Shown here piece by piece: positions 21,987 to 42,270 of a stretch of 64,000 nt of DNA. The stretch spans positions 2,547 to 66,546 of the forward strand of contig JAAYEQ010000005.1 of the NCBI GenBank assembly GCA_012728655.1, given 5' to 3'. The stretch is from Syntrophomonadaceae bacterium (GTDB lineage Bacteria > Bacillota > Syntrophomonadia > Syntrophomonadales > DTU052). Each line of letters begins with the position of its first letter. The stretch's first letter is position 1. The notes under the pieces were generated by a model, which searched no databases, was not told the origin of the DNA, and worked only from the letters and a program-made list of their open reading frames with translations. The position numbers and the translations under genes were made by a program.

Positions 21987-22008
21987 TCAGCCTGGGAGGA
22001 ATGAGTTT

Positions 22009-22215
22009 TTGGATGAGAAAAACAATCGGACCCAAGTCAGGGACCGGGTTAGAAGACTGATTGACTCACAGAGGGAATTCAACGAACTGGTGAACCAGTT
22101 TCGACGGGAAACCAGCGACCCCGAAGTGCAGCGAATCCTGGGGGAAATCGCCAACCGAGGTCTTGAAATCGTGAACCGACTGTCTCGATTGCTGGCCATA
22201 AAATGCGTAACTTGA
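22009..22215 (+). CDS. Hypothetical small Arg-rich helical protein
   Basis: 68 aa. TTG start 9 nt after GGGAGGA. No family recognised. Confidence 0.4.
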   Translation: MDEKNNRTQVRDRVRRLIDSQREFNELVNQFRRETSDPEVQRILGEIANRGLEIVNRLSRLLAIKCVT

Positions 22216-22546
22216 AGGTAGGCAAACCCTCTGGTGGAGGGTTGTTGATAAAAAGTCTTAACCTGCTCCCTCTGACTTAACTGACGTAAAAGCTTCCTTG
22301 CCGGAAAGATTGCCGGACTTCGCTTGCCGGGTTGGCCCCGTTAATCGTATGCTGCAAGCCGGGAAAAAATAACGGCCGGCTGAAAACAGCCAGAAAAATA
22401 ACGTTAAATGAGCATAAAAGCAGTAAAAATAGGGATTTATCGCCGTATTCAGTAACCCGGCCCCGATTCCCGACATATAATTAGGTAACGAATTGGATAA
22501 TCTTCCAGCTTTGGAGGTGTCAATAAGAGCAGGGGAGGGGGTCAGA

Positions 22547-22708
22547 ATGGCTACGGATAAGTTTGAACACGCTACCTTCTATCTGACAAAAAACCAGGTT
22601 GATCAAATCAAGAAGCTTGCAAAAGACAACCAGATCTCGCGCAGTGCATTGGTGCGCATGATTATAAGAGAATACCTTGCCAGACAGGATGAAAACAAGA
22701 AGGAGTAG
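22547..22708 (+). CDS. Ribbon-helix-helix (CopG/Arc-like) DNA-binding protein
   Basis: 53 aa from ATG 22547 after GGAGGGGG. RHH pattern: beta strand HATFYLTK, then helices QVDQIKKLAK and SRSALVRMIIREYL. Confidence 0.65.
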   Translation: MATDKFEHATFYLTKNQVDQIKKLAKDNQISRSALVRMIIREYLARQDENKKE

Positions 22709-22735
22709 TGCAAACAGCGCATGCATGGCTGAACA

Positions 22736-22760
22736 AAAAGCACCCGGAAAGGGTGCTTTT
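22736..22760 (+). terminator. Rho-independent terminator after the RHH gene
   Basis: AAAAGCACCC-ggaaa-GGGTGCTTTT, a perfect 10-bp stem. Confidence 0.7.
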
Positions 22761-22935
22761 GGCCTGCTGTCTGCGGTGGCAAGCTTTATCATCATGTGTT
22801 AACCGAACAAAAGTTGAGCGCGATTGGTTTACCCAGGCCGAAATCTATAATACAATTAAGGCAGACAAGCTCGAAAACTACAATTTAATGTATAATGTTG
22901 TCGAAACTAGTAGTGATAAATGGAGAGGGCTGGAT

Positions 22936-24873
22936 ATGCAGAGCGATGTAATGCCAATATGGAATAATTCCACGAAAAAACAATCCTTGAAAACAGCGGA
23001 TAGAATGGAGCAGGCGTGGAATTTGTTTATGCGGGACGGTGTTGTTGACAGCAGCATAGTAAGGCCCGAGATTGCCAATTCCTGGCGCCGTTGTTACAAA
23101 CAGGGCAGGAAAAGCGGACTGGTTCCGCAAAGCGTGCTGAAAGAGCACCAGAAGAGCAATGAACTCTTAATTGAAGTATCGAAACCGGTAATAAGCGATC
23201 TGGTAAATATGATGAACAAGCAACTCGACAGTTTTTCCGTAATGCTGCTGGACGCCGAAGGAGTGGTTATTCACCGGATTAATTATAACAATAACATTGT
23301 GACCCTGGGGCATCTATGTGATGAGAGGCATCGCGGTACCAGCGGTCCGGCACTGGCAATTGCCAATAATGTGGGAACTGAGGTGGTCGGTTATGAGCAT
23401 CTTTATCCCAACGCCCATCACTGGCATACCATCGGAGTCCCGATTCGTGACGGCGACATGCATACTGTCGGTGTTATAGCGTTGCTGAATACCACAGGTC
23501 AGTACATCCCTCTTACCATGCAAATCGTTTCCCTGGCCGCTTCCATAATTGAATCCCGTCTGCACCGCCAGAAATTGCTGCTGGATGTATCATCTACGGT
23601 CATGAATGCACTAAACAGTGCCGCCATGCTGGTTAATGAACAGGGAATAGTTGTGTGCGCCAATGAACTGTGTCTGAATCTCCTGGGAACGACCCCGGAG
23701 AGGCTCTTTGGCAATAATCTGGCGGAGCACCTGACTGCCGTTAATAACCAAGATTTGCTGCTGACTCTGGCATCCGGCGACGACACTTTCTATGTGCCGA
23801 TTAAGAACCGTGACAGCGGCTGTCGGCACTCCAATCGAATTTGCCGGGTGGACAGGCAAATAATTCAGATCGAACCCCGGGAAACCTTGTTTATGTTGAC
23901 TTTTAAGCCAATGTATCAATATCTGTTTAACAAATCGGTTGCTGAAACCGACGCCTTTTCTGTTCTGGCCGGTAAAAATAAGGCGTTTCTTAAAGTAATC
24001 GAGACGGCTCGAAAGGCTGCAGGTATGAATTGCAACATCCTGATTGAGGGGGAAAGCGGAACCGGCAAGGAATTGATCGCTCAGGCCATCCATCGACAAA
24101 GCGCACGTCCCGGACGTTTTGTTGCCGTTAACAGCGGCGCCATTCCCAAAGAATTGTGGAACAGTGAGCTTTTCGGTTATGAAGAGGGTGCTTTTACCGG
24201 CGCAAAGAAAGGCGGGAATCCGGGGAAGTTTGAACTGGCCCATAAAGGAACCCTCTTTCTTGATGAAATTGCTGAAATGCCTCTGCCCATGCAGGTATCG
24301 CTTTTGCGTTTGCTGGAAGATAAAACGGTTACCCGACTGGGGGGGAAAGATTCCCGGATTTTTGATGTACGTGTTATCGCGGCCACCAACCGCAACCTGA
24401 TGAATGAAGTGAGGAATGGCAGTTTTCGTGAGGACCTGTTTTATCGGTTGAATGTGGTTTATCTCAAGGTCCCGCCCTTGCGCGAACGCAAGGATGATAT
24501 TCCCATTTTGGCAGAGCTGATGTTACAACGGTGCTGTTCAAAAAACAATATGAGTGCTCCACAGATTGACCGCCAGGTTATAGATGTTTTTTGTGATTAT
24601 AATTGGCCCGGCAATGTCCGGCAACTGCAAAATGTAATGGAATGCAGTCTTATTCAAGATGATGACGGTGTGATCACCCGTGATGACTTACCCTCTTATC
24701 TATTGGAAGACAGTAATTCAGCGACTAAGGCGGGGAAACTTCAACAGGTGGAAGAGACTGTGATTCGGGAAGCCCTGCAGAGGAATAATGGAAACATCAG
24801 CCAAACTGCCAGGGAACTAGGGATCACCCGGAAAACTCTGTACAGGAAGATGAAGAAGATCGCCAACGGTTGA
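22936..24873 (+). CDS. Sigma-54-dependent transcriptional activator (AcoR-like sensory N-terminus, PAS, AAA+, Fis HTH)
   Basis: Walker A GESGTGKE, GAFTGA motif (EEGAFTGAKKGG), Walker B LFLDEI, C-terminal HTH ISQTARELGITRKTLYRKMKK, N-terminal SWRRC motif typical of AcoR-type regulators. Start set at ATG 22936 (GGAGAGGG upstream) because the longer ORF runs through a terminator hairpin. Confidence 0.9.
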   Translation: MQSDVMPIWNNSTKKQSLKTADRMEQAWNLFMRDGVVDSSIVRPEIANSWRRCYKQGRKSGLVPQSVLKEHQKSNELLIEVSKPVISDLVNMMNKQLDSFSVMLLDAEGVVIHRINYNNNIVTLGHLCDERHRGTSGPALAIANNVGTEVVGYEHLYPNAHHWHTIGVPIRDGDMHTVGVIALLNTTGQYIPLTMQIVSLAASIIESRLHRQKLLLDVSSTVMNALNSAAMLVNEQGIVVCANELCLNLLGTTPERLFGNNLAEHLTAVNNQDLLLTLASGDDTFYVPIKNRDSGCRHSNRICRVDRQIIQIEPRETLFMLTFKPMYQYLFNKSVAETDAFSVLAGKNKAFLKVIETARKAAGMNCNILIEGESGTGKELIAQAIHRQSARPGRFVAVNSGAIPKELWNSELFGYEEGAFTGAKKGGNPGKFELAHKGTLFLDEIAEMPLPMQVSLLRLLEDKTVTRLGGKDSRIFDVRVIAATNRNLMNEVRNGSFREDLFYRLNVVYLKVPPLRERKDDIPILAELMLQRCCSKNNMSAPQIDRQVIDVFCDYNWPGNVRQLQNVMECSLIQDDDGVITRDDLPSYLLEDSNSATKAGKLQQVEETVIREALQRNNGNISQTARELGITRKTLYRKMKKIANG

Positions 24874-25171
24874 GTACCACCAAACCCTGATGCCTTTTAA
24901 TGCAAGAGGTGAGAAAAACACCGCTTATCATTCGGCTAATAATTGTTTACTTACTACACACAGTATCTTTGATATACACCGGTGGCCGGAACCCTCAATT
25001 GTCCCACCATTAGAGACCGTTCGGTCGGGTAATGCTCCTCCGAACGGTTGATTCTTTATTGTTCAGACTTAATCGGTTGTCATCATTTGATCAAGATATC
25101 AACTTTCTCTTTCCTTTCTACCCCCCTAAAATCCCTGATTATCACTACTTCATAGGCTTTGCCCTGCGCTT

Positions 25172-25187
25172 TGGCACGGTTTTTGCA
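25172..25187 (+). promoter_or_regulatory. Sigma-54 (-24/-12) promoter
   Basis: TGGCACggtttTTGCA: GG at 25173-25174 and GC at 25185-25186, exact GG-N10-GC spacing. About 170 nt upstream of the acyl-CoA dehydrogenase start and directly downstream of the EBP gene. Confidence 0.8.
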
Positions 25188-25357
25188 AGTTGATCTAAAC
25201 GAAAATTCGACGCGGAAAACGGGGGTATTGGTTCGGTACAGCCGATGAGCAGACCGCCAGTACTGTCAGTAAAATTCGCAATCGGGAGGTGACACGGAGT
25301 TCAAGCAACCAAGCACGAAAGCTGTTTAGGTCAAAAATACTGCAGGGAGGGAATACT

Positions 25358-26545
25358 ATGATGTGGTTTATGAATGAAGAACGCGAGTTGATGCGTAATA
25401 TCGCCCGGGAATTTGTCGAGAAAGAGGTTCTTCCAGTTGCCCAGGAATTGGACATGAATGAAGAATATCCGCGACATCTCTTTAGAAGAGCCGGGGAATT
25501 GGGATTAATAGGGGTTGTATACCCCAAAGAATACGGCGGGTTGGATGGAGATTGGGTAACCAAAATGCTGATAACCGAGGAATTGTGTAAAGGGTCTCCT
25601 ACGCTTAACGTAGTTATCGGTGCCCACAGCTCTCTGGCCGGCGGTGTTTTAAATCTCCTGGGGACCCACGAGCAAAAGGCAAAGTACCTTACACCGGCGG
25701 TAAAAGGGGAACAGATTTTGGCGCTGGCTTCAACCGAGTCTGCAGGTTGTTTTAACATGGAAGAATTCCAGACCAGAGCCTATCAGGACGGCGATGAGTG
25801 GGTCATAAACGGTACCAAGATATTTATAACCAATATTATGGTGGCCGACACTTACATCGTTACCGCCAGAACTGCCGAGCACTATGATCCGGTGACCCGC
25901 AAAGGATTCAGCATGTTCATCGTGGAGAAGGATACTCCGGGATTGGAATTCGGTAAAATCGAGAACAAACTGGGGTGGCATGGTTCCAATACCGGACCGG
26001 TATATTTTAAGAATGTGCGGGTGCCTAAAGAAAACATTTTAGGACCTTTGCATGAAAGTGTCGGTGCTTTTGCTCTCAGCGCCTGCGACGAATACATGTC
26101 GTGCGGTGCGGCCGGTTTGGGTATAGCCGAAGCCTGTTACGAGAAAGCCCTGGCCTACGCCAAGAGCAGAATGCAGAAGGGCAAATCGCTTTATGACAAC
26201 TATCAGGTTATCAGGCATAAATTTGCGCGTATGGCAACGGAAATTGAGGCTTTGCGGGCACTCACCTTCGGTACGGCCATGATAAGAGATACCGGTGTTT
26301 ATCCGCTGGCCCTGGCGCGCATGTGCAAGACCAAAGGATACGAAACCGCCATGCTGTGCGCCAACGAAGCGGTCCAGATTTTCGGCGGTCTGGGCGTAGT
26401 TCGAGAAACCGGGGTGGAACGCTTCTTCCGCGATGCCAGGTTGTTTGGAATCGCCGGAGGGGCGATTGAGCCTCTGTTCGATCAGATAAACATGTTTAAG
26501 GACCACAATATGGAATTCATCGTCAGACAAGCCCCGCAATCGTAG
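25358..26545 (+). CDS. Acyl-CoA dehydrogenase (IVD/LCAD-type catalytic-base position)
   Basis: 395 aa from ATG 25358 (GGGAGGG upstream). ACAD N, middle and C domains (YPKEYGG, ALASTESAGCFN, WVINGTKIFITN, IFGGLGV..E..VERFFRDARL). Confidence 0.9.
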   Translation: MMWFMNEERELMRNIAREFVEKEVLPVAQELDMNEEYPRHLFRRAGELGLIGVVYPKEYGGLDGDWVTKMLITEELCKGSPTLNVVIGAHSSLAGGVLNLLGTHEQKAKYLTPAVKGEQILALASTESAGCFNMEEFQTRAYQDGDEWVINGTKIFITNIMVADTYIVTARTAEHYDPVTRKGFSMFIVEKDTPGLEFGKIENKLGWHGSNTGPVYFKNVRVPKENILGPLHESVGAFALSACDEYMSCGAAGLGIAEACYEKALAYAKSRMQKGKSLYDNYQVIRHKFARMATEIEALRALTFGTAMIRDTGVYPLALARMCKTKGYETAMLCANEAVQIFGGLGVVRETGVERFFRDARLFGIAGGAIEPLFDQINMFKDHNMEFIVRQAPQS

Positions 26546-26579
26546 TTGCAGCCGGAACACCAAAACAGTATCCGCACGC

Positions 26580-26732
26580 TTGAATGGGGCATTTGCCCGT
26601 GGATTACATCAGATTTTGGGAGGGATTCCGCTTACCGAAGGAATACAAAGGCTGTTTAAAGGTATTGAAGAGGGCATACTTCACATCTTGACTCATCCCC
26701 AGTACAAACCTGCGGTTGAGGCGAAGTATTAG
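26580..26732 (+). pseudogene. Probable 3' remnant of a second SDR gene
   Basis: The frame ending at TAG 26730-26732 reads ..GGIPLTEGIQRLFKGIEEGILHILTHPQYKPAVEAKY. This is collinear, without gaps, with the C-terminus of the downstream SDR (..HGIELEQAIDMLFEALEKDQFYAQTTSQARPRIEQRF). No ATG, no RBS and no Rossmann part. Confidence 0.35.
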
Positions 26733-26874
26733 ATGATTATGGATTCCATGCCCCAGTAAGTATCGCTGCGGTAAAGCGAGCTGGGCAGACTGTAAGTTTA
26801 AACACCGTCTACTGTTCACTTGATTGGAGATTTTGCAACCGGCTGTTGCACAAAAATTAAGGAGGGATTGAATC

Positions 26875-27723
26875 ATGATCGATTTGAAAGGAAGGACAGT
26901 AGCAATAACCGGGGCTGCCAGCGGTCTTGGCATGGGAATGGCCAAGAGATGTCATAAGTTGGGAGCCAAGTTGGCCCTGGCCGACATTGAGGCTCCGGCA
27001 TTGGCTGCTTTGGAAGAAGAGCTTAAAGCCATGGGAGCCGACTTCTTTACCATGGTAATGGATGTTTCCAAGTATGAGGACATGCAGGCATTTGCCGACA
27101 AAACCTTTGCCACCTACGGAGAGGTTGCGCTGTTCTTCAATAATGCCGGCGTGGAGATCTCAGGCTGTGTCTGGGAGTTGTCAATCAAGGATTGGCAATG
27201 GGTTTACGGGGTGAATGTGTTTGGAGTAATCCATGGGATAAAATGCTTTGTTCCCAGAATGATCAAACAGGAAAAGGAGTCAATAATTATCAATACCGCC
27301 TCCATGGCCGGGTTGATTTCAGGCTCTTTTTCACCTATTTACCTGAGCGGCAAACACGCCGTAGTCACCATAACCGAGTCGTTGGAACTGCAGCTGCAGG
27401 AGAAAAAGAGCAAAGTCAAGGCCTTTGTCTTCTGTCCCGGATATGTGAAGACTCGTTTGCATGAATCACATCGCAATCGTCCACCGGAACTTCAAAACGA
27501 CCCCAATGACCCCTATTACCAATCTGAAGATTACAAGAAGAAACAGGGCATGATGCAATATGCGGTGCCCCATGGCATTGAGTTGGAGCAAGCCATAGAT
27601 ATGCTCTTTGAAGCCTTGGAAAAAGACCAGTTTTACGCGCAGACCACGTCACAAGCACGCCCCAGGATCGAACAGCGCTTCCGCAATATCCTCGAGAATA
27701 AGCGTCCCCAATTCGGAGGGTAA
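26875..27723 (+). CDS. Short-chain dehydrogenase/reductase (classical SDR)
   Basis: TGAASGLG cofactor motif, NNAG, catalytic YLSGK (YxxxK). RBS AAGGAGGG upstream. Confidence 0.9.
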   Translation: MIDLKGRTVAITGAASGLGMGMAKRCHKLGAKLALADIEAPALAALEEELKAMGADFFTMVMDVSKYEDMQAFADKTFATYGEVALFFNNAGVEISGCVWELSIKDWQWVYGVNVFGVIHGIKCFVPRMIKQEKESIIINTASMAGLISGSFSPIYLSGKHAVVTITESLELQLQEKKSKVKAFVFCPGYVKTRLHESHRNRPPELQNDPNDPYYQSEDYKKKQGMMQYAVPHGIELEQAIDMLFEALEKDQFYAQTTSQARPRIEQRFRNILENKRPQFGG

Positions 27724-27885
27724 AGAAAAAGCATCGAAGTCGAAACCGGCATATTGGCGGAGAGAACTCCGTCAATATGCCGGGACTGCTTTTATTTGCT
27801 CTTTCCTGAAAAAACCATACAGTATCGGCAATTACGAGGCCGGCACTTTGGAGCGCTTGTGATTCAGGGGATTAGGAGGGAAACA

Positions 27886-28653
27886 ATGGCGAGGATCGTA
27901 GCCTGCTATAAATGGGTAGTCGATGAAGCAGATATCAGGATCAACCCGGACCGTTCGGTAGATCTCAGTAAAGCGAAAAAGAAGATCAGCGATTATGACA
28001 AATGCGCCATCGAGGCGGCGGTGCAGACAGCGACGGCAATAGGGGGAAAAGCCGTGGGGCTGACTTTTGGAACCGCAGATGCCAGACAATCATTAAAAGA
28101 TGCTTTATCACGGGGACTGGAAGAGGTTTACTACATCAATGCCGAAGAGGCGGCACAGGCAGACGGGGCCGCCACCGCCAATGCACTCGCGGCGGCGATA
28201 AAGAAAATGGAAGAGGTAAACCTTGTAATCTGTGCTGAAGGAGCAAGTGATACCTATCAGCGTCAGATCGCTCCAAGAATCGGAGCCGTCCTTGATTGGC
28301 CGGTAGCAACCTCGGTATCCAAATTGGAGGTAACCGGGAACACCCTGACCGCAGTGAGGAAACTGGATGACTGTCTGCAGACGGTAAAGGTGGAACTGCC
28401 GGCGGTAGTGTCGGTTTTACCGGAAATCAATAATCCGCCGATTCCCACTTTGAAAGCAGTTCTGGCAGCAGGTAAAAAACCGGTTAAAGAGTTCAGCGCC
28501 GGCGAACTGAACGCGGATTTGGTTCCAAAGACCAGAGTTGCCGATTTGCAGGGCTATGTCATGAGTCGCAAAAACCTCATTTTTAAAGATGGTGAAGCTG
28601 TTGATCAGGTTAAAGAACTCGTGGCTGCTTTGAAAAAGGAAGGTGTTATCTGA
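27886..28653 (+). CDS. etfB: Electron transfer flavoprotein beta subunit
   Basis: 255 aa from ATG 27886 (AGGAGGG upstream). EtfB-like pattern IVACYKWV...IS.YD..AIEAA...VICAEGASDTYQRQIAPRIGAVLDWP. Confidence 0.88.
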   Translation: MARIVACYKWVVDEADIRINPDRSVDLSKAKKKISDYDKCAIEAAVQTATAIGGKAVGLTFGTADARQSLKDALSRGLEEVYYINAEEAAQADGAATANALAAAIKKMEEVNLVICAEGASDTYQRQIAPRIGAVLDWPVATSVSKLEVTGNTLTAVRKLDDCLQTVKVELPAVVSVLPEINNPPIPTLKAVLAAGKKPVKEFSAGELNADLVPKTRVADLQGYVMSRKNLIFKDGEAVDQVKELVAALKKEGVI

Positions 28654-29558
28654 TGTCGGGTGTTTATATTTTCAGCGACAAAAATGATATAGCCGCGGAG
28701 ATTATAGGTTTTGCCAAGAGTGCGGGGAAAGACGCCATCCTCCTGGTTTTCGACGAGCAAACGGCGAAGGTAATGGGTAATTCGGGAGCCGATAAAATTT
28801 ATCTTGTTAATGGCGAAAGTGAACTGGTGGAAAGCTATGCCAGGTCAATTGCTCAACTGCTCCGGGAGGAAGGGGCTGAATTATTTGCAGTCGGTGCCAC
28901 TCCCAGAGGAAGGGATCTGGCAGCCCGAGTAGCCGTATATCTCAACTGTGGCATGGCAAGCGACGTATCGACACTCAGCTGCGGCGATGGCCAATGGCTG
29001 ACCCAAAGGATAATATATGGAGGAGCCGTGCAACAGACGGAAGTCCTGGAGGGATTGGCGGTTGTGACCATTCCCGGAGGGAAATTCGAGCCGGTATCCG
29101 GTACCGGTGAAATGGTCAATATTACCCTGGCGGCCGATCGGCGGATCAGCCTGGAGGAGACTATGCCCATCGGTCATCAAGGAGCGGATCTTTCCGCAGC
29201 CGAAAAAGTGGTATGCGTCGGAATGGGCCTGGAAAAAGAAGAAGACATGCAGCTGGCGAAAGACTTGGCCGCAGCATTAGGAGCCGAAATAGGTTGTACC
29301 CGCGGAATTGCCGAAGAAAGACACTGGCTCCCCGCAGAACGGTATATCGGAATTTCCGGGGCGGTGATCAAGCCCAAGCTCTATATATCTATGGGGGTGT
29401 CCGGCCAGGTTCAACATGTGGTGGGAATACGTGATTCACAGGTAATCGTTGGCATTGATATAAACGAAAAGGCCCCGATATTCGCCGCTGCCGATTACGG
29501 TATAGTGGGTGACATGTATGAAGTGGTGCCCCTGTTGATTAAAGCATTATCGGAATAG
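28653..29558 (+). CDS. etfA: Electron transfer flavoprotein alpha subunit
   Basis: 301 aa. TGATG overlap with etfB. FAD-binding C-terminal motif GISGAVIKPKLYISMGVSGQVQHVVG...VGIDINEKAPIF..ADYGIVGD. Confidence 0.9.
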   Translation: MSGVYIFSDKNDIAAEIIGFAKSAGKDAILLVFDEQTAKVMGNSGADKIYLVNGESELVESYARSIAQLLREEGAELFAVGATPRGRDLAARVAVYLNCGMASDVSTLSCGDGQWLTQRIIYGGAVQQTEVLEGLAVVTIPGGKFEPVSGTGEMVNITLAADRRISLEETMPIGHQGADLSAAEKVVCVGMGLEKEEDMQLAKDLAAALGAEIGCTRGIAEERHWLPAERYIGISGAVIKPKLYISMGVSGQVQHVVGIRDSQVIVGIDINEKAPIFAAADYGIVGDMYEVVPLLIKALSE

Positions 29559-29580
29559 CCTGCCGTATTAATCAAAAATT

Positions 29581-29621
29581 AAAGACCGGTTCATGCCGTG
29601 TGGCTGCAACCGGTCTTTTTT
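29581..29621 (+). terminator. Rho-independent terminator of the etf operon
   Basis: AAAGACCGGT-18 nt-ACCGGTCTTT followed by TTT. Confidence 0.7.
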
Positions 29622-29656
29622 GTTCAAAGAAGTTTTTGGAAACCGCGTTTATGCCG

Positions 29657-29685
29657 TTGACAACAGCAGACCGGGTCATTATTAT
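29657..29685 (+). promoter_or_regulatory. Sigma-A-type promoter of the rubrerythrin/FDP cassette
   Basis: TTGACA (29657-29662), 17 nt, TATTAT (29680-29685). Confidence 0.6.
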
Positions 29686-29693
29686 AAAAAATA

Positions 29694-29719
29694 TAATGAT
29701 TTCAAATTTGAAATCATTA
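29694..29719. promoter_or_regulatory. Perfect 26-bp palindromic operator candidate (Fur/PerR-family-like)
   Basis: TAATGATTTCAAA|TTTGAAATCATTA, perfect dyad, starting 9 nt after the -10 hexamer. Confidence 0.55.
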
Positions 29720-29844
29720 CTTATTTGGGTCGACGGGCATAGGCGGTACCGGAGGACTGCCATATCAAGGGGTGGTTCCTCGGCCGATAAACCCGGGCCC
29801 GTAAACAAATTTTAATGATTATCTATTGAGGAGTGAGCGTTTTT

Positions 29845-30393
29845 ATGAAAAAATGGGTATGCGGGGTATGCGGTTGTATTCACGAAGGAACTGTACCACC
29901 GGAGAAATGTTCCCAATGCGGTGCAGGCAAGGAGAAGTTTTCGGAGTTTTCGTCCGACAGGTTGGTTTGGGCCGATGAACACCGGATCGGGGTTGGTGCC
30001 GGAGTAGACCCCGAGGTGGTGGAGCTTCTGAGAGCCAACTTTATCGGAGAGTGTACCGAGGTTGGCATGTATCTGGCCATGAGCAGACAGGCTGATCGGG
30101 AAGGTTATCCGGAAATAGCCGAGGCCTACAAGCGGATTGCCTGGGAAGAAGCGGAGCACGCCGCCAAATTTGCAGAACTGCTCGGTGAAGTTGTGGCCGC
30201 AGACACCAGAAGAAATCTGGAGATGCGGGTGGAAGCGGAATTCGGTGCCTGTCAGGGCAAGAAAGACCTGGCGACGAAAGCAAAACAGCTCAACTATGAC
30301 GCAATCCATGACACCGTTCACGAGATGTGCAAAGATGAAGCCCGACACGGTGCAGCCTTTGCCGGCCTGTTAAAGCGTTATTTCCAAGCCTAA
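29845..30393 (+). CDS. Reverse rubrerythrin (N-terminal rubredoxin-like, C-terminal diiron ferritin-like domain)
   Basis: CGVC-x12-CSQC at the N-terminus. ExxH diiron motifs EEAEH and DEARH. GAGGAG RBS before ATG 29845. Confidence 0.88.
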
Positions 30394-30506
30394 TAGCACC
30401 GGACCTGATAAGTTAGGCCATCTGGGAGCGGATTGCTACCCCGGTAACGGAGCACTTCAGGGGTGGTATCCGTTCCAATAATTTTAGGGAACAAGGGAGG
30501 GAAAAC

Positions 30507-33113
30507 ATGAAACGCGCAGTACCTGTTAAGGATGGTATTTGGTGGGTGGGAGCCCTTAACCCGGATCTCAAGGTTTTTGATATTGTAATGACCACCGAAT
30601 ATGGAACCACTTACAACTCCTATTTGGTTAAGGGATCACAAAAGACTGCTCTTATCGAAGCGGTCAAGGACGGCTTTTTACCTGAATTTCTGGAGCGGAT
30701 CAAGGAGGTTGTAGATCCGTCCACCATCGATTTTCTGATCCTTAATCACACCGAACCTGACCATACCGGTTCGGTTGCCGAGTTGTTAAAAATCGCACCG
30801 CAGATAACAGTGGTTGGAAGTCAAATCGCGCTTACATTTCTGGCCGAGATTGCCAATCGTGACTTTCGCAGCATGGCTGTCAAAGATGGGGATGTTATCT
30901 CTCTGGGTGACAAGACCCTGCGCTTTATTGATGCTCCGTTTTTGCACTGGCCTGACACCATTTTCACCTATTGTGAAGAAGACCGGATACTGTTCAGTTG
31001 TGATGTCTTTGGATCCCATTACACTGACGAGCGATTGTTCAACGACCTTATTGACGCCGACTTTACAGATGCCTTTGAATACTACTTCCGGATGATTCTC
31101 GGCCCGTTTAAGCCCTACCTGGCACAGGCTTTGGACAAGATTGCCGGTCTGCCGATTGATATTATCTGCCCGAGTCACGGTCCCATTCTGCGGTCGAATT
31201 TGGACGAGTATATAAATCGTTACCGGGAATGGACCAAGCCGGCGCAACCCAGTGAGAAGCCGCGAATAATAGTCCCTTATGTTTCCGCATATGGCTACAC
31301 CAAGAGTATTGCGAAATCGATAATTGAAGGTGTATCCATGATGGGTGATTTTGACATCCAAAGCTACGATCTGGTGGAAACCCCGGTGGAAGAAGTGCTG
31401 CCAAAGATTGAGGATGCCGACGCTCTGCTGGTGGGGTCGCCCACCCTGGTAGGGGATGCGCCGCCTCCCATCTGGCAACTGCTCTACAGCCTGTCCCCGG
31501 TGGTACACGGCAACAAACTGGCCGGTGCTTTCGGCTCCTACGGGTGGAGCGGCGAAGCGGTGCCCAATATTGAGACCAGATTGCGCGCCTTGAGAATGCA
31601 GGTAGTACCCGGCCTCAAGATCAACTTTAAGCCTTCGGAAGCTCAACTGGAGAAAGCATTTGAGTGGGGCGTGAATTTTGGACGTCGGTTAATCGATTTT
31701 CTCACGCCCAAGTCCAAGATCAGCTGGCGCTGCCTGGTCTGTGGGCAGGTTTTCCAGGGAGAGGAGCCGCCCAATGTCTGCCCGGCATGCGGAGTCAGCC
31801 GCGAGAATTTCGTGCGGGTGCAGCCGGAAGATGAGTTTATCAACGACACTCAGAACACCTATGTAATTGCCGGCGGGGGAATTGCCGCCCTGACCGCAGC
31901 CGAAGCTATCCGTAAACGTGACCGTACCGGAAAGATACAGATTTATACCCAGGAACCCTTCCCCATATACTACCGTACGGCCTTGGCCGAATGTATGGTC
32001 GAAAGGCTGGCTGATGAGGCCTTGTTCGTCCATCCGGAATCCTGGTTCCGGGAAAACCGCATTGAAGTTTTTACTGGAAAAACCGTCTCGGATATAAACC
32101 CCGGCGAAAGGAAAATCACCCTGGAGGATGGTACGCAGGTTTCATACTCCAAGCTGATTATTGCTACCGGAGCTCACAGTTTCATTCCTCCAATTCCCGG
32201 CAACGATCTGCAGGGAGTTTTCACGCTGCGCAGCCTGGAAGATGCCGACCGCATCAGGGAATACAGCCGGGGCCTAAAGAAAGCGGTTATCATAGGCGGT
32301 GGAGTCCTGGGGCTGGAAGCGGCCTATGAACTGAAGGAAGGCGGATTTGAGGTCACCATAATCGAAAACTCACCCCGGCTTATGCCGCGGCAGTTGGACC
32401 GGGAGGCTTCACAGCGCTTGGAGGAAATCCTGACCAATGCCGGAATCGAACTGGTCCTGGGCGCTTCAACCGGCGAGATATTGGGACCGGAGCGGGTCAC
32501 GGGGGTCAGGTTGTCCGATGGACGGGAGATTCCTTGCGACTTTGTACTGCTTTCCACTGGGGTCAGGCCCAATACCGCACTGGCGCAAACGGCGGGCATT
32601 AGCGTCAACCGCGGAATAGTGGTCGACAGCGGTATGCGAACCAGCGCCAATGATATCCTGGCCTGCGGTGATGTAGCCGAATACAACGGGGTTGTCGCCG
32701 GGTTATGGACGGTGGCGGTAGAAATGGGGCGCGTAGCCGGAGCGAATGCTGCCGGGGATTGGCTGGAATACGATCCTCCGAAATTATCCACCATGTTGGC
32801 GGTGTTTGGCCGGGAGATATTCTCGGTGGGCGACGTCAATCAGCCCCCGGAAGGTTGCCGCATTGTGACCAGCACCGACCCGGAGGAGGGGTCGTTCAAA
32901 AAATACTTTATCAAGGATGGCGTATTGATTGGAGCCATTATTATTGCTCCCAGGGTTCAGGCAACCGGAGCACTGCGTGCGGTGGGCCGGGGCGGTAAAG
33001 TGAAGGCCGACAAGTGGAAGTGCCGTCGGTGCGGGTATATACACGAGGGCCCGGAACCGCCGGATGTATGTCCGGTTTGTGGCGCTCCCAGGAACCTGTT
33101 TGACCCGGCGTAA
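30507..33113 (+). CDS. Multidomain flavodiiron protein: MBL-like diiron, flavodoxin, short rubredoxin, NAD(P)H:rubredoxin oxidoreductase-like FAD domain, second short rubredoxin
   Basis: 868 aa. HTEPDH diiron motif. Flavodoxin-like middle part. CLVC-x12-CPAC (aa ~410-430). GGGIAALTAAE and GGGVLGLEAA dinucleotide motifs. C-terminal CRRC-x12-CPVC. Confidence 0.9.
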   Translation: MKRAVPVKDGIWWVGALNPDLKVFDIVMTTEYGTTYNSYLVKGSQKTALIEAVKDGFLPEFLERIKEVVDPSTIDFLILNHTEPDHTGSVAELLKIAPQITVVGSQIALTFLAEIANRDFRSMAVKDGDVISLGDKTLRFIDAPFLHWPDTIFTYCEEDRILFSCDVFGSHYTDERLFNDLIDADFTDAFEYYFRMILGPFKPYLAQALDKIAGLPIDIICPSHGPILRSNLDEYINRYREWTKPAQPSEKPRIIVPYVSAYGYTKSIAKSIIEGVSMMGDFDIQSYDLVETPVEEVLPKIEDADALLVGSPTLVGDAPPPIWQLLYSLSPVVHGNKLAGAFGSYGWSGEAVPNIETRLRALRMQVVPGLKINFKPSEAQLEKAFEWGVNFGRRLIDFLTPKSKISWRCLVCGQVFQGEEPPNVCPACGVSRENFVRVQPEDEFINDTQNTYVIAGGGIAALTAAEAIRKRDRTGKIQIYTQEPFPIYYRTALAECMVERLADEALFVHPESWFRENRIEVFTGKTVSDINPGERKITLEDGTQVSYSKLIIATGAHSFIPPIPGNDLQGVFTLRSLEDADRIREYSRGLKKAVIIGGGVLGLEAAYELKEGGFEVTIIENSPRLMPRQLDREASQRLEEILTNAGIELVLGASTGEILGPERVTGVRLSDGREIPCDFVLLSTGVRPNTALAQTAGISVNRGIVVDSGMRTSANDILACGDVAEYNGVVAGLWTVAVEMGRVAGANAAGDWLEYDPPKLSTMLAVFGREIFSVGDVNQPPEGCRIVTSTDPEEGSFKKYFIKDGVLIGAIIIAPRVQATGALRAVGRGGKVKADKWKCRRCGYIHEGPEPPDVCPVCGAPRNLFDPA

Positions 33114-33380: not shown

Positions 33381-34709
33381 ATGATGGAAAACCGATGGAA
33401 AGAGATGTACAAGAGAAAGCTCAAAACGCCGGATGAGGCGGTGGCCGAGATCCGGGATGGGGAGGGGATTGGATTTTCGCTGGCTAACGGACGGCCGGAA
33501 GCCTTCTGTAACGCACTGGCGAAAAGGGTGTTGGCAGGGGAACTGAAAGATATTAAGGTTTTCGCGGGGCTGGGATTGAGTCCTACCCTGTTGAACAGCC
33601 CAGAGGTTGCGGACAAGATTGAATTTGATTCCCCCTACCTGGGGCCCATTGAACGGTTTTTCGTGCAGCAGGGATTGTATACGTATACCCCGGTCAAACT
33701 GGGTGATGCGGATATAATCGCTCGCCGGCACCTGCGTCCCGGATCGGTTATGGCCATGACGGTATCGCCGATGGATCGCAACGGATTTTTCAGCTGCGGC
33801 ATCAACGTGGACTATGGGTATGGTTTGGCCAGAATGCACCCGGGCAAGCGCCTGCTGATAGTGGAGGTTAACGAACACATGCCCAGGACCTTCGGGGTTA
33901 ACCTTTTCCACATAAGCGAAGTGGATATTATAATCGAGAATAACGTTCCGTTGAAGACCCTGCCCGAGGTTAAGGTTACTGAGGAAGACAGAAGAATTGC
34001 GGAGTACATAGTGGAACACGTACCGGACGGAGCTTGTATACAGCTGGGTATCGGCGGCATTCCCAATGCCGTGGGCGAGTTTTTGAAGGACAAGAAAGAC
34101 CTCGGGGTTCATACCGAGATGATAACCGACAGCATGCTGGATCTCTGGGAGTGCGGCGCCATTACCTGCCGCAAGAAGAATTTCATTCCCTACAAGTGGG
34201 TGGCATCCTTTGCTCTGGGTTCGCAGAGGCTTTATGACTTTCTCCATGAGAATCCGATGGTCGATTTCTACACCGTGGGGTTCGTAAACCGCCCCTCGAT
34301 CATCGGCAGGAACGACAACATGATCTCGGTAAATGCCACGCTGGAGGTGGACCTGACCGGACAGTGCGCCTCCGAGTCGATAGGACCACGGCAGTATACC
34401 GGGACCGGAGGACAACTGGACTTTGTGCAGGGTGCCTGGCTGTCCAAAGGCGGACAATCATTTATTGCTCTGCACTCCACTTATACCGATAAATCCGGTC
34501 AGAGGAAGTCCAAGATTGTTCCCACCCTCTCTCCGGGCACATTTGTCACCACCCCCCGGACCGAGGTTAACTGGATCGTAACCGAGTATGGAGCGGCCCA
34601 GCTTAAGGGGCAAAATGTCAGGCAACGGGCTGAGGCCCTGATCAACCTGGCCCATCCGGACTTCCGGGACGAACTCCGATTCCAGGCCAAAAAACTGATG
34701 CTGCTATAG
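33381..34709 (+). CDS. Acetyl-CoA hydrolase/transferase family protein (4-hydroxybutyrate/butyryl-CoA:acetate CoA-transferase-like)
   Basis: 442 aa. Family I CoA-transferase motifs LGIGGIPNAV and TGTGGQLDFVQGA. Confidence 0.88.
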   Translation: MMENRWKEMYKRKLKTPDEAVAEIRDGEGIGFSLANGRPEAFCNALAKRVLAGELKDIKVFAGLGLSPTLLNSPEVADKIEFDSPYLGPIERFFVQQGLYTYTPVKLGDADIIARRHLRPGSVMAMTVSPMDRNGFFSCGINVDYGYGLARMHPGKRLLIVEVNEHMPRTFGVNLFHISEVDIIIENNVPLKTLPEVKVTEEDRRIAEYIVEHVPDGACIQLGIGGIPNAVGEFLKDKKDLGVHTEMITDSMLDLWECGAITCRKKNFIPYKWVASFALGSQRLYDFLHENPMVDFYTVGFVNRPSIIGRNDNMISVNATLEVDLTGQCASESIGPRQYTGTGGQLDFVQGAWLSKGGQSFIALHSTYTDKSGQRKSKIVPTLSPGTFVTTPRTEVNWIVTEYGAAQLKGQNVRQRAEALINLAHPDFRDELRFQAKKLMLL

Positions 34710-34974: not shown

Positions 34975-35679
34975 TTAACCACCGGACAGCCCTGCTTCCA
35001 CATGCCTCAGGTGCCGCAGCATTCCTTCCCGGGCGGCTTCAGGATCTCCGGCCAGGATGGCATCCAGGATAGCCTGGTGCTCGTTTAATATCCGCTCGGC
35101 GGTTTTGGGATTTGAATACATCTCGGTGCGATTTGCCAGGAAGGTCTGGTGCATCATATTATCCAGGGTTTTAATGATCCTGCGCAACAGCGGGTTTTTG
35201 GTGGCATCGGCAATGGCGAAGTGAAAGAAGAGATCGAATTCCACCCCTTGCTCATGGCGTTCGGCGGTAGCCTTCATATCGTTCAGTACTTCAACCATCT
35301 TGAGCCGGTCCTGCTCGGTAGCCCTCTGAGCGGCAAGGGCTGCGGCTTCGGCTTCCAGGATCCTCCGCACTTCCATTAACTGCGCCAAGGGGTTGCGCTC
35401 TACCGAGAGCACCAGGGCCAGGGGCGCGATCATCTCATTGTTCACGCTGGCGCTCACATAGGTGCCTTCTCCCGGCTTTACCTCAAGTATTCCCATTGCC
35501 TGCAGGGCCACCACGGCTTCCCGGACCGAGGCCCGGCTGACCCCGAGCATCTGGGCCATATCCCGCTCCGAAGGCAGCCTGTCACCGGGATTAAAGGTGC
35601 CGGTACTGATCAATTCTCGCAGCTGTTCAACGATCTCCTCGTAGATTTTTTTCGTTTTAATGGGCCTGAACTCTCCCAT
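34975..35679 (-). CDS. GntR-family regulator, FadR subfamily (FCD domain; LldR/PdhR-like)
   Basis: Winged HTH LPSERDMAQMLGVSRASVREAVVAL and an all-helical FCD C-terminal domain. Last gene of the oxidoreductase operon. Confidence 0.88.
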   Translation of the reverse strand: MGEFRPIKTKKIYEEIVEQLRELISTGTFNPGDRLPSERDMAQMLGVSRASVREAVVALQAMGILEVKPGEGTYVSASVNNEMIAPLALVLSVERNPLAQLMEVRRILEAEAAALAAQRATEQDRLKMVEVLNDMKATAERHEQGVEFDLFFHFAIADATKNPLLRRIIKTLDNMMHQTFLANRTEMYSNPKTAERILNEHQAILDAILAGDPEAAREGMLRHLRHVEAGLSGG

Positions 35680-35710
35680 AACGACCTCCTATTAAAGAGA
35701 TGCGCCTGGA

Positions 35711-36649
35711 TTAGACCGCAATTTTCGCCCGTTCTCGCATAAAAACAATTTCATAATTGATATCATTCTGTATTTCGGCGATGCGCTGCGCGGCGTCGGG
35801 GCCTTTAAGGAAACGGCTAAAGCGCCCCTGCTTCATTAAGTATTCATCCACGGGATCCGGGTCTTTTTTTCCACTGATTATAAGTGAGGTGGGGTTATTG
35901 AAAGTGATTTTGCCGTTTTCAGCTTCCCATAATAACCAGGCGCCGCAGCGCACGGCCATACGGCTCATCTGTACGGTTTCCGACATATCGAACTGCCATC
36001 CCAAATAGCAGGGGGCCAGGATTTCGATGTACTTCATGCCCGGTATGTTTTTGGCTTTCACCACCTTGTCGTAAAGGTCGCCGGGGTAGGCCACCGTAGC
36101 CGTTGCCACGTAAGGGATATTGTGCTCCAGCATCAGCAGAGCCATGTTCTTTTTCGGCTGGCGCTTGCCGGCGGGGGTGGTGGTGGTATAACTGCCGCGC
36201 GGGGTTGCCCCGCTGCGCTGAACGCCGGTGTTGCTGTAAGCTTCATTGTTATAACAGAAGTGGATGAAGTTGTCGTTGCGCTCGGCTGCAGCCGACAGGG
36301 CCTGAAAGCCGATGTCATAGGTGCCGCCGTCGCCCACCCAGGTGAATACGGTGGGAAGCTCGCCTTGCAGACGGCCCTTTTCCTTCATTATTTCCAGCGC
36401 GGCGGCAATACCGGAGGCCGAGGAACCGGCGGTGGCAAAACATATATTCATGCAGGGCCAGTTGTAGCCCAGTCTGGGAGTCATGCCCATGCTGGCTACC
36501 GCGCAGGAAGGGGTCAGCAGCATGATGGCATTGGGACCCAAAGCTTTGCCTACAATCCGCAGGGCCATGGTGGCGGGACAGCCGCCGCACGACCCATTAC
36601 CGCTTAAAACCTGCTCGGTATCGGGTAGTTTTTTTATGCTGGTCGCCAT
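35711..36649 (-). CDS. 2-oxoacid:ferredoxin oxidoreductase, beta (TPP-binding) subunit
   Basis: CGGCP...C Cys motif near the N-terminus. TPP motif GDGGTYDIG...NNEAYSNTG. Confidence 0.9.
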   Translation of the reverse strand: MATSIKKLPDTEQVLSGNGSCGGCPATMALRIVGKALGPNAIMLLTPSCAVASMGMTPRLGYNWPCMNICFATAGSSASGIAAALEIMKEKGRLQGELPTVFTWVGDGGTYDIGFQALSAAAERNDNFIHFCYNNEAYSNTGVQRSGATPRGSYTTTTPAGKRQPKKNMALLMLEHNIPYVATATVAYPGDLYDKVVKAKNIPGMKYIEILAPCYLGWQFDMSETVQMSRMAVRCGAWLLWEAENGKITFNNPTSLIISGKKDPDPVDEYLMKQGRFSRFLKGPDAAQRIAEIQNDINYEIVFMRERAKIAV

Positions 36650-36680
36650 ATATCATCCATTCCTTTCCTGGTCTGTATCT

Positions 36681-37811
36681 TCATTCATCCATCATGGCGC
36701 GGATCTCGGCGGCCATGAATCGGCGGGTGAGGTCAACGCCGCCAATACCCATAACCCGGTTTTTAACCGTGACATCGTTGCGTCGGCCGAATAGGACGCT
36801 TTTCAGTTCTGAAGCCAGTATTCCTCCGGGATGGCCGAAGTTGTAATTGCGATCCAGTACCATCACCTGCGCGTTTCTCGGCAGTGCGTTTATTATATCC
36901 TCGGCCGGGAAAGGCACCACCAGTCGCGGTCTGAGGAGGCCGGCTTTGATTCCCTGCTCGCGCAGGATGTCGATGGAAAGTCTTAATTCGCCGGCCATGC
37001 TGTTGATGGCAAAAACAACTACTTCGGCGTCATCCAGGCGATAGGTGTCAATGGTGTCGCCGTCCCACATGCCGGTGATATCTTTATACTCCCGAGCTGC
37101 CTGTTTTGCCAGCGGGATGGCGTCCAGGATATCGTCCGCCAGCATCCGGCGGAAGACTGCGTATTCGGGAGCATTGGTTACATTGCTGAAGGATGAGGGA
37201 TGAGCCGGGTCGAGCCGCCATTCCGGCTGGTACGGAGGCAGGAAGCGGTCAATGTCCTCCTGCGGCGGCAGGGTCAGGGGCATCAGACAATGGGAGATGG
37301 AAAAGCCGTCGAAGTTAACCATCACCGGGATGTTAATCTGTTCCGCCACCCGGAAGGCCTGCAGTATGGTGTTGAACACCTCCTGATTTGAAGAGCAGTG
37401 ATATTGGATCCAGCCGGTATCGCGCTGAGAAAATGAGTCCTGATGATCGGCCCACAGGGTCCAGGGAGCAAAAATGCCGCGGTTTACGTTGCACATTACC
37501 ACCGGCAAACGTCCGCCGGAAGCCATATGTAAAACTTCATGCATATACAAAAGCCCGTTGGCCGAGGTGGCGGTAAAAACGCGGGCACCGGCCGCAGACG
37601 CAGCCACCGCTGCGGCCATGGCGCTGTGTTCGCCTTCAACCGGAATGAAGCGGGCGTCGAGCTCGCCGCTCTCAATCATGCCGGCCAGGGCTTCCATAAT
37701 ACCGGTCTGGGGGGTGATGGGGTATCCGGGCACCACATCCACCCGGGCGCTTTTAACGGCCAGCGCCGCGGCATGGGTACCGGTAACCATTACAACTTGC
37801 GCTGTTTGCAT
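36681..37811 (-). CDS. 2-oxoacid:ferredoxin oxidoreductase, alpha subunit
   Basis: 376 aa. PorA/VorA-type core (GYPITPQT, EGEHSAMAAA, TATSANGL). Confidence 0.9.
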   Translation of the reverse strand: MQTAQVVMVTGTHAAALAVKSARVDVVPGYPITPQTGIMEALAGMIESGELDARFIPVEGEHSAMAAAVAASAAGARVFTATSANGLLYMHEVLHMASGGRLPVVMCNVNRGIFAPWTLWADHQDSFSQRDTGWIQYHCSSNQEVFNTILQAFRVAEQINIPVMVNFDGFSISHCLMPLTLPPQEDIDRFLPPYQPEWRLDPAHPSSFSNVTNAPEYAVFRRMLADDILDAIPLAKQAAREYKDITGMWDGDTIDTYRLDDAEVVVFAINSMAGELRLSIDILREQGIKAGLLRPRLVVPFPAEDIINALPRNAQVMVLDRNYNFGHPGGILASELKSVLFGRRNDVTVKNRVMGIGGVDLTRRFMAAEIRAMMDE

Positions 37812-37815
37812 ACGG

Positions 37816-38073
37816 CTACTCCTCCTTTACCATGCTGATGGCGCCGGTGGGGCATTCCCGGGCGCACACCCCGCAGCCCTTGCAGTAGCGATAATCGATA
37901 GTAATCTCCTGGCGGTCGATGACCGCTTCCGGACAATACACCCAGCACAATTGGCATTTGCTGCATAATTTATTGTCAACGAGGGGACGGTGGGCTCTCC
38001 AGGAACCGGTATCACCGCCCGATCCCTTCATCGGCCAGGAAATGGGCCGGTAGGCTTTGGTAACTGCTTGCAT
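37816..38073 (-). CDS. 2-oxoacid:ferredoxin oxidoreductase, delta (2x[4Fe-4S]) subunit
   Basis: CSKCQLCWVYCP and CKGCGVCARECP cluster motifs, 85 aa. Confidence 0.85.
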   Translation of the reverse strand: MQAVTKAYRPISWPMKGSGGDTGSWRAHRPLVDNKLCSKCQLCWVYCPEAVIDRQEITIDYRYCKGCGVCARECPTGAISMVKEE

Positions 38074-38108
38074 CGGTTTTCCTTCCTTTCGCCAATCCAG
38101 AATAATGA

Positions 38109-42151: not shown

Positions 42152-42270
42152 AGTCGGCTCTGCGCTCACAAGGGGTTATCGACTTTTCTTTAAAGAAACC
42201 GACCGTTTTCCAACTGTTGGCGGCTAAGTTCAGCCGACTGCCGCCGGGAAGGATTAATGGGGGTGGAATC

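Follow-up and report, generated by a model that had tools for sequence, protein, structure and literature searches.

The closest known systems to the locus described here are two gene clusters of Escherichia coli, YdiO-YdiQRST, which has an AraC-type regulator (YdiP), and CaiA/CaiD-FixABCX of the carnitine pathway. The former, together with YdiP, YdiF and FadK, is a putative anaerobic acyl-coenzyme A (CoA) dehydrogenase/enoyl-CoA reductase system ('putative' being the RefSeq wording). In the Syntrophomonadaceae, the Fix system of Syntrophomonas wolfei, EtfAB3-FixCX (Swol_2121-2124), has been discussed as a possible reverse-electron-transfer or ferredoxin-reducing system and described as low in abundance, of unknown role and possibly bifurcating (PMC4324140, PMC6687939, PMC5017805). 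Here we analyse a 64-kb stretch of a Syntrophomonadaceae bacterium contig (the window), in which genes for a sigma-54 enhancer-binding protein (EBP), an acyl-CoA dehydrogenase (ACAD), a short-chain dehydrogenase/reductase (SDR) and the electron-transfer flavoprotein (ETF) subunits EtfB and EtfA lie together. As judged from sequence comparison, this locus is a trimmed, rearranged and recombined, i.e., mosaic, derivative of a conserved module. The parent module is widespread but unstudied, and the window copy is real and tidy, not exotic.

Related loci (labelled L001 onward, with the window as WIN) were searched by tblastn with the window proteins, FixC and FixX of Syntrophomonas curvata, and the enoyl-CoA hydratase (ECH) and oleate hydratase of Cutibacterium acnes. 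ACADs of a single clade (at least 48% identity) adjoin EtfB-EtfA-FixC-FixX together with an SDR and/or an ECH in approximately 20 loci from three phyla, indicating a conserved module that consists of EtfB-EtfA-FixC-FixX, the ACAD, and a PRK06194-type SDR and/or an ECH. Identity to the window ACAD is 88, 85 and 84% in uncultured Syntrophomonas and 67% in S. curvata, whose locus (L005) has an EBP gene and a complete ACAD-SDR-EtfBA-FixCX cluster. The clade further includes proteins from Syntrophothermus, S. zehnderi, Ca. Syntrophocurvum and two Spirochaetia metagenome-assembled genomes, and, among the Actinobacteria, from C. acnes, Mobilicoccus, Cellulomonas, Streptomyces, Pengzhenrongella and Propionibacteriaceae. 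The SDR gene lies directly 3' of the ACAD gene in 14 loci. The regulator is exchanged along phylum lines: a sigma-54 EBP accompanies the module in Firmicutes and Spirochaetes, and an AraC-type (Streptomyces, Cellulomonas, Pengzhenrongella) or TetR-type regulator (C. acnes, Mobilicoccus) in Actinobacteria. The idea that EBP sensor type goes with SDR type was given up, as L014 does not fit it. All-against-all clustering of the open reading frames (ORFs) of 20 loci limits the conserved families to EBP, ACAD, SDR, EtfB, EtfA, FixC, FixX and ECH. It reveals no other conserved neighbour, whether thiolase, CoA ligase/transferase or transporter; two other shared families, f9 and f11, correspond to a two-component system. 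Many of the relatives have an ECH, but none has a thiolase. Our literature search found no published experiment on any member of the module, including those of Syntrophomonas and C. acnes.

Gene order varies among the actinobacterial members. In C. acnes (L006, 7307-17325) it is oleate hydratase-ACAD-SDR-ECH-EtfBA-FixCX, followed by an alpha/beta hydrolase, with the TetR regulator. In Mobilicoccus (L017) the oleate hydratase and Fix genes run divergently from ACAD-SDR-ECH, and the search of that locus revealed no alpha/beta hydrolase.

Within the window, tblastn detects no homologue of FixC, FixX or ECH; a weak FixX match at 37837-37983 corresponds to the ferredoxin subunit of a 2-oxoacid oxidoreductase outside the unit. 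The earlier note on this DNA had described the locus as a self-contained unit, a description that is not supported because FixC, FixX and ECH of the ancestral module are all missing here. The neighbourhood comparison proposed in that note gave a divided answer: EBP, ACAD, SDR and ETF do co-localise in the relatives, but there with FixC/FixX and usually an ECH. Its inventory holds. All the parts that it listed, from the ACAD through the decayed SDR fragment, the intact SDR, EtfB and EtfA to the final terminator, were recovered at the positions given below. The unit lacks thiolase, hydratase and ligase genes (tblastn; thiolase and ligase were sought among the larger ORFs given to Pfam, and none was found). 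The two CoA-transferase genes, as that note had also said, lie outside the unit, at 33381-34709 and, for a family III member, at 42217-43443 (Pfam/NCBIfam scans).

Several pieces of evidence indicate that the window copy is derived: FixC, FixX and ECH are absent, a remnant of a second SDR is present, etfBA lies 3' of a stable hairpin, and the gene trees are discordant. In neighbour-joining trees the window ACAD, SDR and EBP group with L008-L010, and EtfB/EtfA group elsewhere, with L012/L016 and L011/L005. Correspondingly, identity to the same loci is 85-88% for the ACAD versus 53-59% for EtfA/B. The locus is therefore mosaic but probably functional, because its genes are still under purifying selection: dN/dS is 0.04-0.10 for EBP, ACAD, EtfB and EtfA, with dS saturated, and was not measurable for the SDR owing to the saturation of dS. 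All five ORFs are full-length, and a near-identical locus (99.9%) occurs in at least four independent metagenome contigs. In Syntrophocurvum an ACAD-SDR pair occurs without an adjacent ETF, and therefore separation of the parts of the module appears to be tolerated.

Like YdiO of the E. coli ydi cluster, the window ACAD has its catalytic Glu on helix G and a Gly at the canonical site, but it is only 32% identical to YdiO and scores below the model cut-off. The ETF subunits match the NCBIfam models of YdiQ and YdiR best, although below cut-off, and are 37-38% identical to these proteins. FixC and FixX of the relatives are 42-54% identical to YdiS/YdiT (42-55% when E. coli FixC/X are included, with 55% for FixX), and the actinobacterial versions of the module carry their AraC regulator in a position similar to that of ydiP. 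In contrast to ydi, the window copy has neither FixC/FixX nor an adjacent CoA-transferase or ligase and is predicted to be under sigma-54 and EBP rather than AraC control, and the module has a conserved SDR and, in the relatives, an ECH, both of which are absent from ydi. The relatives also match the gene logic of CaiA/CaiD-FixABCX, i.e., an ACAD, a crotonase-family protein and FixABCX, and CaiA has the same relocated catalytic Glu. However, identity is only 27% for the ACAD versus CaiA and 27% for the ECH of the relatives versus CaiD, there is no CaiB, CaiC or CaiT, an SDR is present, and the window lacks ECH and FixCX.

Clostridial butyryl-CoA dehydrogenase (Bcd)-EtfAB resembles the window in its linkage of ACAD, etfB and etfA without FixCX. 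The window proteins nevertheless differ from it in both features that were tested, the Glu of the YEG motif, which is replaced by Gly, and the group-2 ETF motifs RxGV, GxxSPTxV and RPxFGG, and they fall below the NCBIfam cut-offs. The S. wolfei Fix system comes from the same host family as the window. In the window and in about ten related loci of Firmicutes and Spirochaetes, the Fix-type ETF goes together with a specific ACAD clade and a sigma-54 activator, which argues for a substrate-specific role. Swol_2126, the ACAD encoded beside the S. wolfei Fix genes, was considered as a characterised orthologue and rejected because its published peptides are unlike the clade (PMC9676460).

The regulator gene (22936-24873, forward strand, as are all genes and elements of the unit) encodes a 645-residue EBP with Sigma54_activat (PF00158, 217 bits, residues 345-510), AAA_lid_14 and HTH_8 domains in Pfam. 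Its translation contains SWRRC at residues 49-53, the Walker A motif GESGTGKE and an intact GAFTGA loop, and the AAA+ domain and Fis helix-turn-helix described in the earlier note are present. An N-terminal SWxRC motif is typical of AcoR/DhaR-type regulators. The first 340 residues show marginal similarity to GAF, PAS and DhaR sensor domains in Pfam and among solved structures: PAS matches at residues 221-283 are weak (E values of 2e-5 to 1e-2), and the sole solved match is the E. coli DhaR sensor domain (E = 0.067). NCBIfam models of DhaR (residues 34-641) and PrdR (residues 219-641) align at about half of their cut-offs. Thus, 'AcoR/DhaR-like GAF-PAS sensor', which is close to the wording of the earlier note, is a fair label. 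Since these matches are only marginal, no effector can be inferred for the EBP. The protein shares its architecture of GAF-like, PAS, AAA+ (GAFTGA) and Fis-type domains with the AcoR, DhaR and PrdR regulators of Firmicutes and Proteobacteria, and differs from them in its half-cut-off scores and its target operon. Orthologous EBPs, 50-61% identical, are encoded beside the corresponding ACAD in L005, L008 and L009.

Sigma-54 control of catabolic operons is well known. Between the EBP and ACAD genes lies a -24/-12 promoter, TGGCACGGTTTTTGCA (25172-25187), that is an exact consensus, as the earlier note had recognised. The pattern TGGCAC-N5-TTGCW has this single exact match in the window, versus 0.08 expected from shuffles, and its GG/TTGCA is invariant in the alignment with L005 and L008-L010. 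Transcription is predicted to start near 25197-25199, with a leader of approximately 160 nt. A -24/-12 element is present 5' of the ACAD gene and/or etfB in eight loci (L005, L008-L011, L013, L015, L016), which also encode an orthologous EBP, except for L010, whose contig stops short of that position. Apart from the promoter and the ribosome-binding site, there is little alignment among the 5' leaders of WIN, L005 and L008-L010, and comparison of 22000-30600 with Rfam gave no credible riboswitch or other RNA element. No convincing common inverted repeat that could serve as an upstream activator motif was found across 11 intergenic regions. The region 5' of the promoter contains only short palindromes, e.g., TTGATCAA at 25087-25094, and no motif clearly in common with L005 or L008-L010.

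The ACAD (25358-26545, 395 residues) probably starts at the second ATG, 25361, which is the start used by its homologues, and has the N-terminal, middle and C-terminal ACAD domains (PF02771, PF02770, PF00441). The catalytic Glu position is E245 on helix G, and the canonical YEG position is occupied by G367 ('IAGGAIE' versus 'IYEGTSE' in Bcd). In the alignment neither residue varies, whether among members of the clade or in E. coli YdiO and CaiA. No NCBIfam equivalog cut-off is reached: the best match is acryloyl-CoA reductase AcrC (279 bits, below cut-off), and generic models outscore that of cyclohexane-1-carbonyl-CoA dehydrogenase (217 bits). Among solved structures, clostridial Bcds come closest (236 and 233 bits; PDB 5ol2, 4l1f/4kpu). 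With at most ~40% identity to these and without the catalytic Glu position of Bcd, the enzyme is not an ordinary Bcd of the central pathway; the earlier note had named orthology to such a Bcd as a finding that would refute its reading. The L008 ACAD is 88% identical, with a dN/dS of 0.04.

The 329-bp spacer between the ACAD and SDR genes contains the decayed remnant of a second SDR of the PRK06194 type (approximately 26588-26732, tblastn), of which a frameshifted and deleted C-terminal part is left. Paralogous SDRs align by their C-terminal region with GIPLTEGIQRLFKGIEEGILHILTHPQYKPAVEAKY*, at E values of 1.5e-8 (L013b), 2e-8 (L007) and 1.7e-7 (L011a) in a small search space, and directly 5' of this stretch lies a weaker, out-of-frame match to the CPG..V..L motif. 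Tandem SDR pairs occur in L011 and L013, which explains the origin of the remnant. The intact classical SDR (26875-27723, 282 residues) has an adh_short domain (PF00106, 151 bits), a C-terminal extension, and the motifs ITGAASGLG (TGxxxGxG), FFNNAG (NNAG) and YLSGK (YxxxK). It narrowly misses the cut-off of PRK06194, an NCBIfam SDR family of uncharacterised function (288.2 bits over residues 1-278 versus 308); the partner SDR of C. acnes scores 214. Among proteins of solved structure it is closest to an uncharacterised SDR from Burkholderia and to the C-alpha dehydrogenases LigD/L/O.

EtfB, the small ETF subunit (27886-28653, 255 residues, Pfam ETF 130 bits), is closest to FixA/YdiQ. Its start agrees with the gene call in L002, its best NCBIfam models are PRK12342 (YdiQ-type, 196 versus a cut-off of 338) and FixA (170 versus 219), and its identity to E. 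coli YdiQ/FixA is 37-40%, with 40% for FixA. EtfA, the large subunit (28653-29558, 301 residues, Pfam ETF_alpha and ETF), is closest to FixB/YdiR, scores 230 bits against PRK11916 (cut-off 528), is 35-38% identical to E. coli YdiR/FixB, and has no N-terminal ferredoxin domain. A protein identical to it (100%) is recorded at NCBI from a metagenome-assembled genome of a 'Syntrophomonadaceae bacterium'. In group-2 ETFs the bifurcating flavin adenine dinucleotide (FAD) is surrounded by the motifs RxGV and GxxSPTxV in the small subunit and RPxFGG in the large subunit (PMC10734219). A regular-expression scan found none of the three in the window ETF, in any of the relatives, or in E. coli YdiQR and FixAB; EtfA carries RIIYGG in place of RPxFGG, with only the Arg kept. 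Judged by these motifs, the ETF does not belong to the canonical bifurcating type. The nearest relative of EtfA (71%) belongs to a stand-alone EtfB-EtfA-FixC-FixX cluster of a Syntrophomonadaceae bacterium (L096/L097), where a Mu-type transposase/IstB pair interrupts a B12-binding/radical-SAM region ~2 kb from the cluster. In a JGI contig (3300012521; L001, 99.93% identical), a 1-bp indel at about 4910-4928, equivalent to about 28305-28323 of the window, splits etfB into ORFs of 139 and 109 residues; either the assembly is wrong at this point or part of the population has a disrupted etfB.

Three hairpins bear on how these genes are transcribed. A perfect 9-bp inverted repeat with a T-rich tail 3' of the EBP gene (25016-25048) resembles a terminator (-21.9 kcal/mol and z = -3.9 for the fold of 25008-25066) and therefore suggests that the EBP gene is its own transcription unit. 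Between the SDR gene and etfB, the terminator scan identified a very stable hairpin (27738-27800) with a 17-bp core stem, 21 pairs with its outer extension, -35.2 kcal/mol and z = -7.6, followed by the U-rich tail GCUUUUAUUU. Its role could be that of an internal terminator or an attenuator, or it could stabilise the RNA. A repeated (REP-like) element was rejected because the window holds only the two arms of the hairpin itself. No sigma-54 or good sigma-70 promoter was found between this hairpin and etfB, and a candidate sigma-54 promoter 5' of etfB was rejected because the GG-N10-GC spacing is not met. An intrinsic terminator closes etfA (29581-29621, -22.2 kcal/mol, z = -5.7, then U6). The sigma-54 operon claimed in the earlier note is thus upheld in part: control of ACAD-SDR(-EtfBA) by EBP and promoter is supported by the recurrence of the -24/-12 element in eight loci, whereas a single five-gene transcript is doubtful because of the stable SDR-etfB hairpin and the different phylogenetic origin of EtfBA.

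From the parts, the promoter, their conservation and the active-site type observed above, we infer the direction of the reaction, its partners, the effector and the substrate as follows. The GAF-like/PAS activator would sense a small molecule and open the sigma-54 promoter at 25172-25187. ACAD-SDR would be transcribed from this promoter, and EtfBA through read-through of the hairpin or from a promoter that was not recognised. The ACAD would oxidise a specific acyl-CoA to the 2-enoyl-CoA and pass electrons to a FixAB/YdiQR-type, apparently non-bifurcating ETF. The reduced ETF would give up its electrons to a FixCX-type ETF:menaquinone oxidoreductase, or to a different ETF:quinone oxidoreductase, with its gene elsewhere in the genome. 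A crotonase, whose gene would likewise lie elsewhere, would carry out the hydration, and the SDR would then oxidise the hydroxyacyl intermediate. On this reading the locus is a catabolic unit of a fatty-acid-oxidising syntroph, induced by its substrate and dependent on sigma-54; we estimate the chances that the reading is right as about even.

As to the substrate, the earlier note held that it cannot be read from the sequence, and we agree, as no family model reaches its cut-off. Context weakly suggests a fatty acyl-CoA of medium or long chain length that may be unsaturated or hydroxylated. Hosts of the module include the fatty-acid-oxidising syntrophs Syntrophomonas, Syntrophothermus, S. zehnderi and S. 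curvata. In C. acnes an oleate hydratase gene (737 bits versus an equivalog cut-off of 567) lies directly 5' of the ACAD gene, a homologue 76% identical to it is adjacent in Mobilicoccus, and a long-chain acyl-CoA synthetase gene (722 bits versus a cut-off of 625) lies 5' of the S. zehnderi cluster.

A number of observations weigh against the catabolic unit as we propose it. It assumes that FixC, FixX and ECH, for which the window contains no homologues, are encoded elsewhere in the genome, and no Sigma54 (rpoN) domain was found among the larger ORFs scanned within the window, although the -24/-12 elements and EBPs conserved in related genomes speak indirectly for the presence of rpoN. The module has neither a thiolase nor a CoA-activating enzyme among its conserved genes. 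The closest solved relatives of the SDR (LigD-type) act on non-CoA substrates. The shortfall of every family model leaves the substrate unassigned, and the relatives with a neighbouring oleate hydratase or synthetase gene are distant ones (52-54% ACAD identity), S. zehnderi having the variant of the module with an ECH and a different SDR. Finally, the SDR-etfB hairpin may block expression of etfBA, for which no promoter was detected.

The same enzymes could in principle run in reverse, with the ACAD as an ETF-fed enoyl-CoA (or enone-type) reductase, as in CaiA/FixABCX and Bcd/EtfAB, and with SDR and ECH carrying out reverse beta-oxidation, so that the unit would act as an electron sink, e.g., in dismutation of crotonate or unsaturated acids or in saturating the double bonds of unsaturated fatty acids. 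The architecture is close to CaiA-FixABCX, with CaiA named 'crotonobetainyl-CoA reductase' in RefSeq, and the reductase AcrC is the best NCBIfam match of the ACAD, but the catalytic Glu position of both Bcd and AcrC is lacking. Among solved proteins, the nearest to the ACAD are the Bcd subunits of bifurcating Bcd-EtfAB, whereas the window ETF is without the three group-2 motifs of the NADH-oxidising bifurcating FAD, and an electron donor is not obvious when FixCX is missing from the window. The module does stand beside oleate hydratase in fermentative or facultative Actinobacteria, and S. wolfei induces an extra ACAD on crotonate, though of a different clade (PMC9676460, PMC3582634), yet the hosts are obligate fatty-acid oxidisers. 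We consider the reductive direction unlikely. A further reading, that of the earlier note, dedicates the module to an unusual acyl-CoA, i.e., one that is alicyclic, 2- or 3-methyl-branched or derived from a hydroxy acid, rather than to ordinary fatty acids. A catalytic Glu on helix G is known from isovaleryl-CoA and long-chain ACADs, whose substrates are branched or bulky, and 2-methyl-3-hydroxyacyl-CoA is typically handled by SDR-type rather than HADH-type dehydrogenases; both are consistent with this reading, and a dedicated sensor and regulator implies a specific inducer. The ACAD also matches the cyclohexane-1-carbonyl-CoA dehydrogenase model, but specialised models all lie far below cut-off and below generic ones, so that the proposed link has no specific support. 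Moreover, the conserved neighbours include no ring-cleaving enzyme, carboxylase, CoA ligase or transferase, and the existing contextual hints point to long-chain fatty acids instead, which makes an unusual substrate of this kind doubtful in our view.

It could also be that the locus is decaying, having lost FixCX, ECH and one SDR and acquired a foreign EtfBA behind a terminator, and that it supports no working pathway or expresses only ACAD-SDR. The SDR pseudogene remnant, the missing FixC, FixX and ECH, and the discordance of EtfBA with ACAD, SDR and EBP would fit this, as would the -35 kcal/mol hairpin 5' of etfB with no promoter after it. Set against these are the five full-length ORFs, the low dN/dS of the four that could be measured, the perfect consensus of the promoter, and the Syntrophocurvum ACAD-SDR pair, which shows that separation from the ETF is tolerated. 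The metagenome contig with a split etfB would likewise suit decay, but a single 1-bp indel may be an assembly error. Decay is, on balance, very improbable.

The surroundings of the locus are those of a Firmicute chromosome, with housekeeping and sporulation genes (metG, ksgA, spoIIR, ispE, glmU, prs, L25, gerA) as neighbours in the window. The metagenome samples that hold the organism could not be matched to an oleate stable-isotope probing study by their sample identifiers. A 71-residue CopG/ribbon-helix-helix ORF (22493-22708) lies directly 5' of the EBP gene. Past etfA, a near-consensus sigma-70 promoter (TTGACA-17-TATTAT) and then a perfect 26-bp palindrome, TAATGATTTCAAATTTGAAATCATTA, occupy 29657-29719 and precede a rubrerythrin gene (29845-30393). 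Also 3' of the palindrome is a gene (30507-33113) for an 868-residue fusion of flavodiiron protein, rubredoxin, NADH:rubredoxin oxidoreductase and rubredoxin. The palindrome resembles an operator for a repressor that responds to oxidative stress or redox state. On the reverse strand (34975-38651), a 2-oxoacid:ferredoxin oxidoreductase set (ferredoxin-like delta, POR_N/PFOR_II alpha, thiamine pyrophosphate-binding beta) adjoins a GntR/FCD regulator gene. A second GntR/FCD regulator gene (40681-41400) lies between ispE and an NTP-transferase gene, shortly ahead of the family III CoA-transferase gene.

The value of the window locus itself is mostly one of better annotation, as it is a trimmed mosaic copy and not a self-contained novel pathway. 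Its relatives suggest something broader, namely that Fix-type ETFs related to this one serve a specific clade of inducible ACADs as dedicated partners. A bolder proposal, which we hold to be improbable, is that the parent module is an unrecognised, widespread anaerobic pathway for long-chain unsaturated or hydroxylated fatty acids (e.g., oleate- or 10-hydroxystearate-derived acyl-CoAs), in which case the 'orphan' Fix/EtfAB3 systems of syntrophs would be its substrate-specific, non-bifurcating electron outlets rather than general ferredoxin-reducing devices. The module beside oleate hydratase in C. acnes hints at the handling of unsaturated fatty acids on skin. The role of Fix-type ETFs in syntrophic fatty-acid oxidisers is unsettled in the literature, which treats them as low-abundance and possibly bifurcating. 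The lineage studied here offers a concrete and testable alternative, a substrate-inducible branch from ACAD to ETF to quinone, and the full module is carried by the cultured S. curvata, so that experiments on it are possible.

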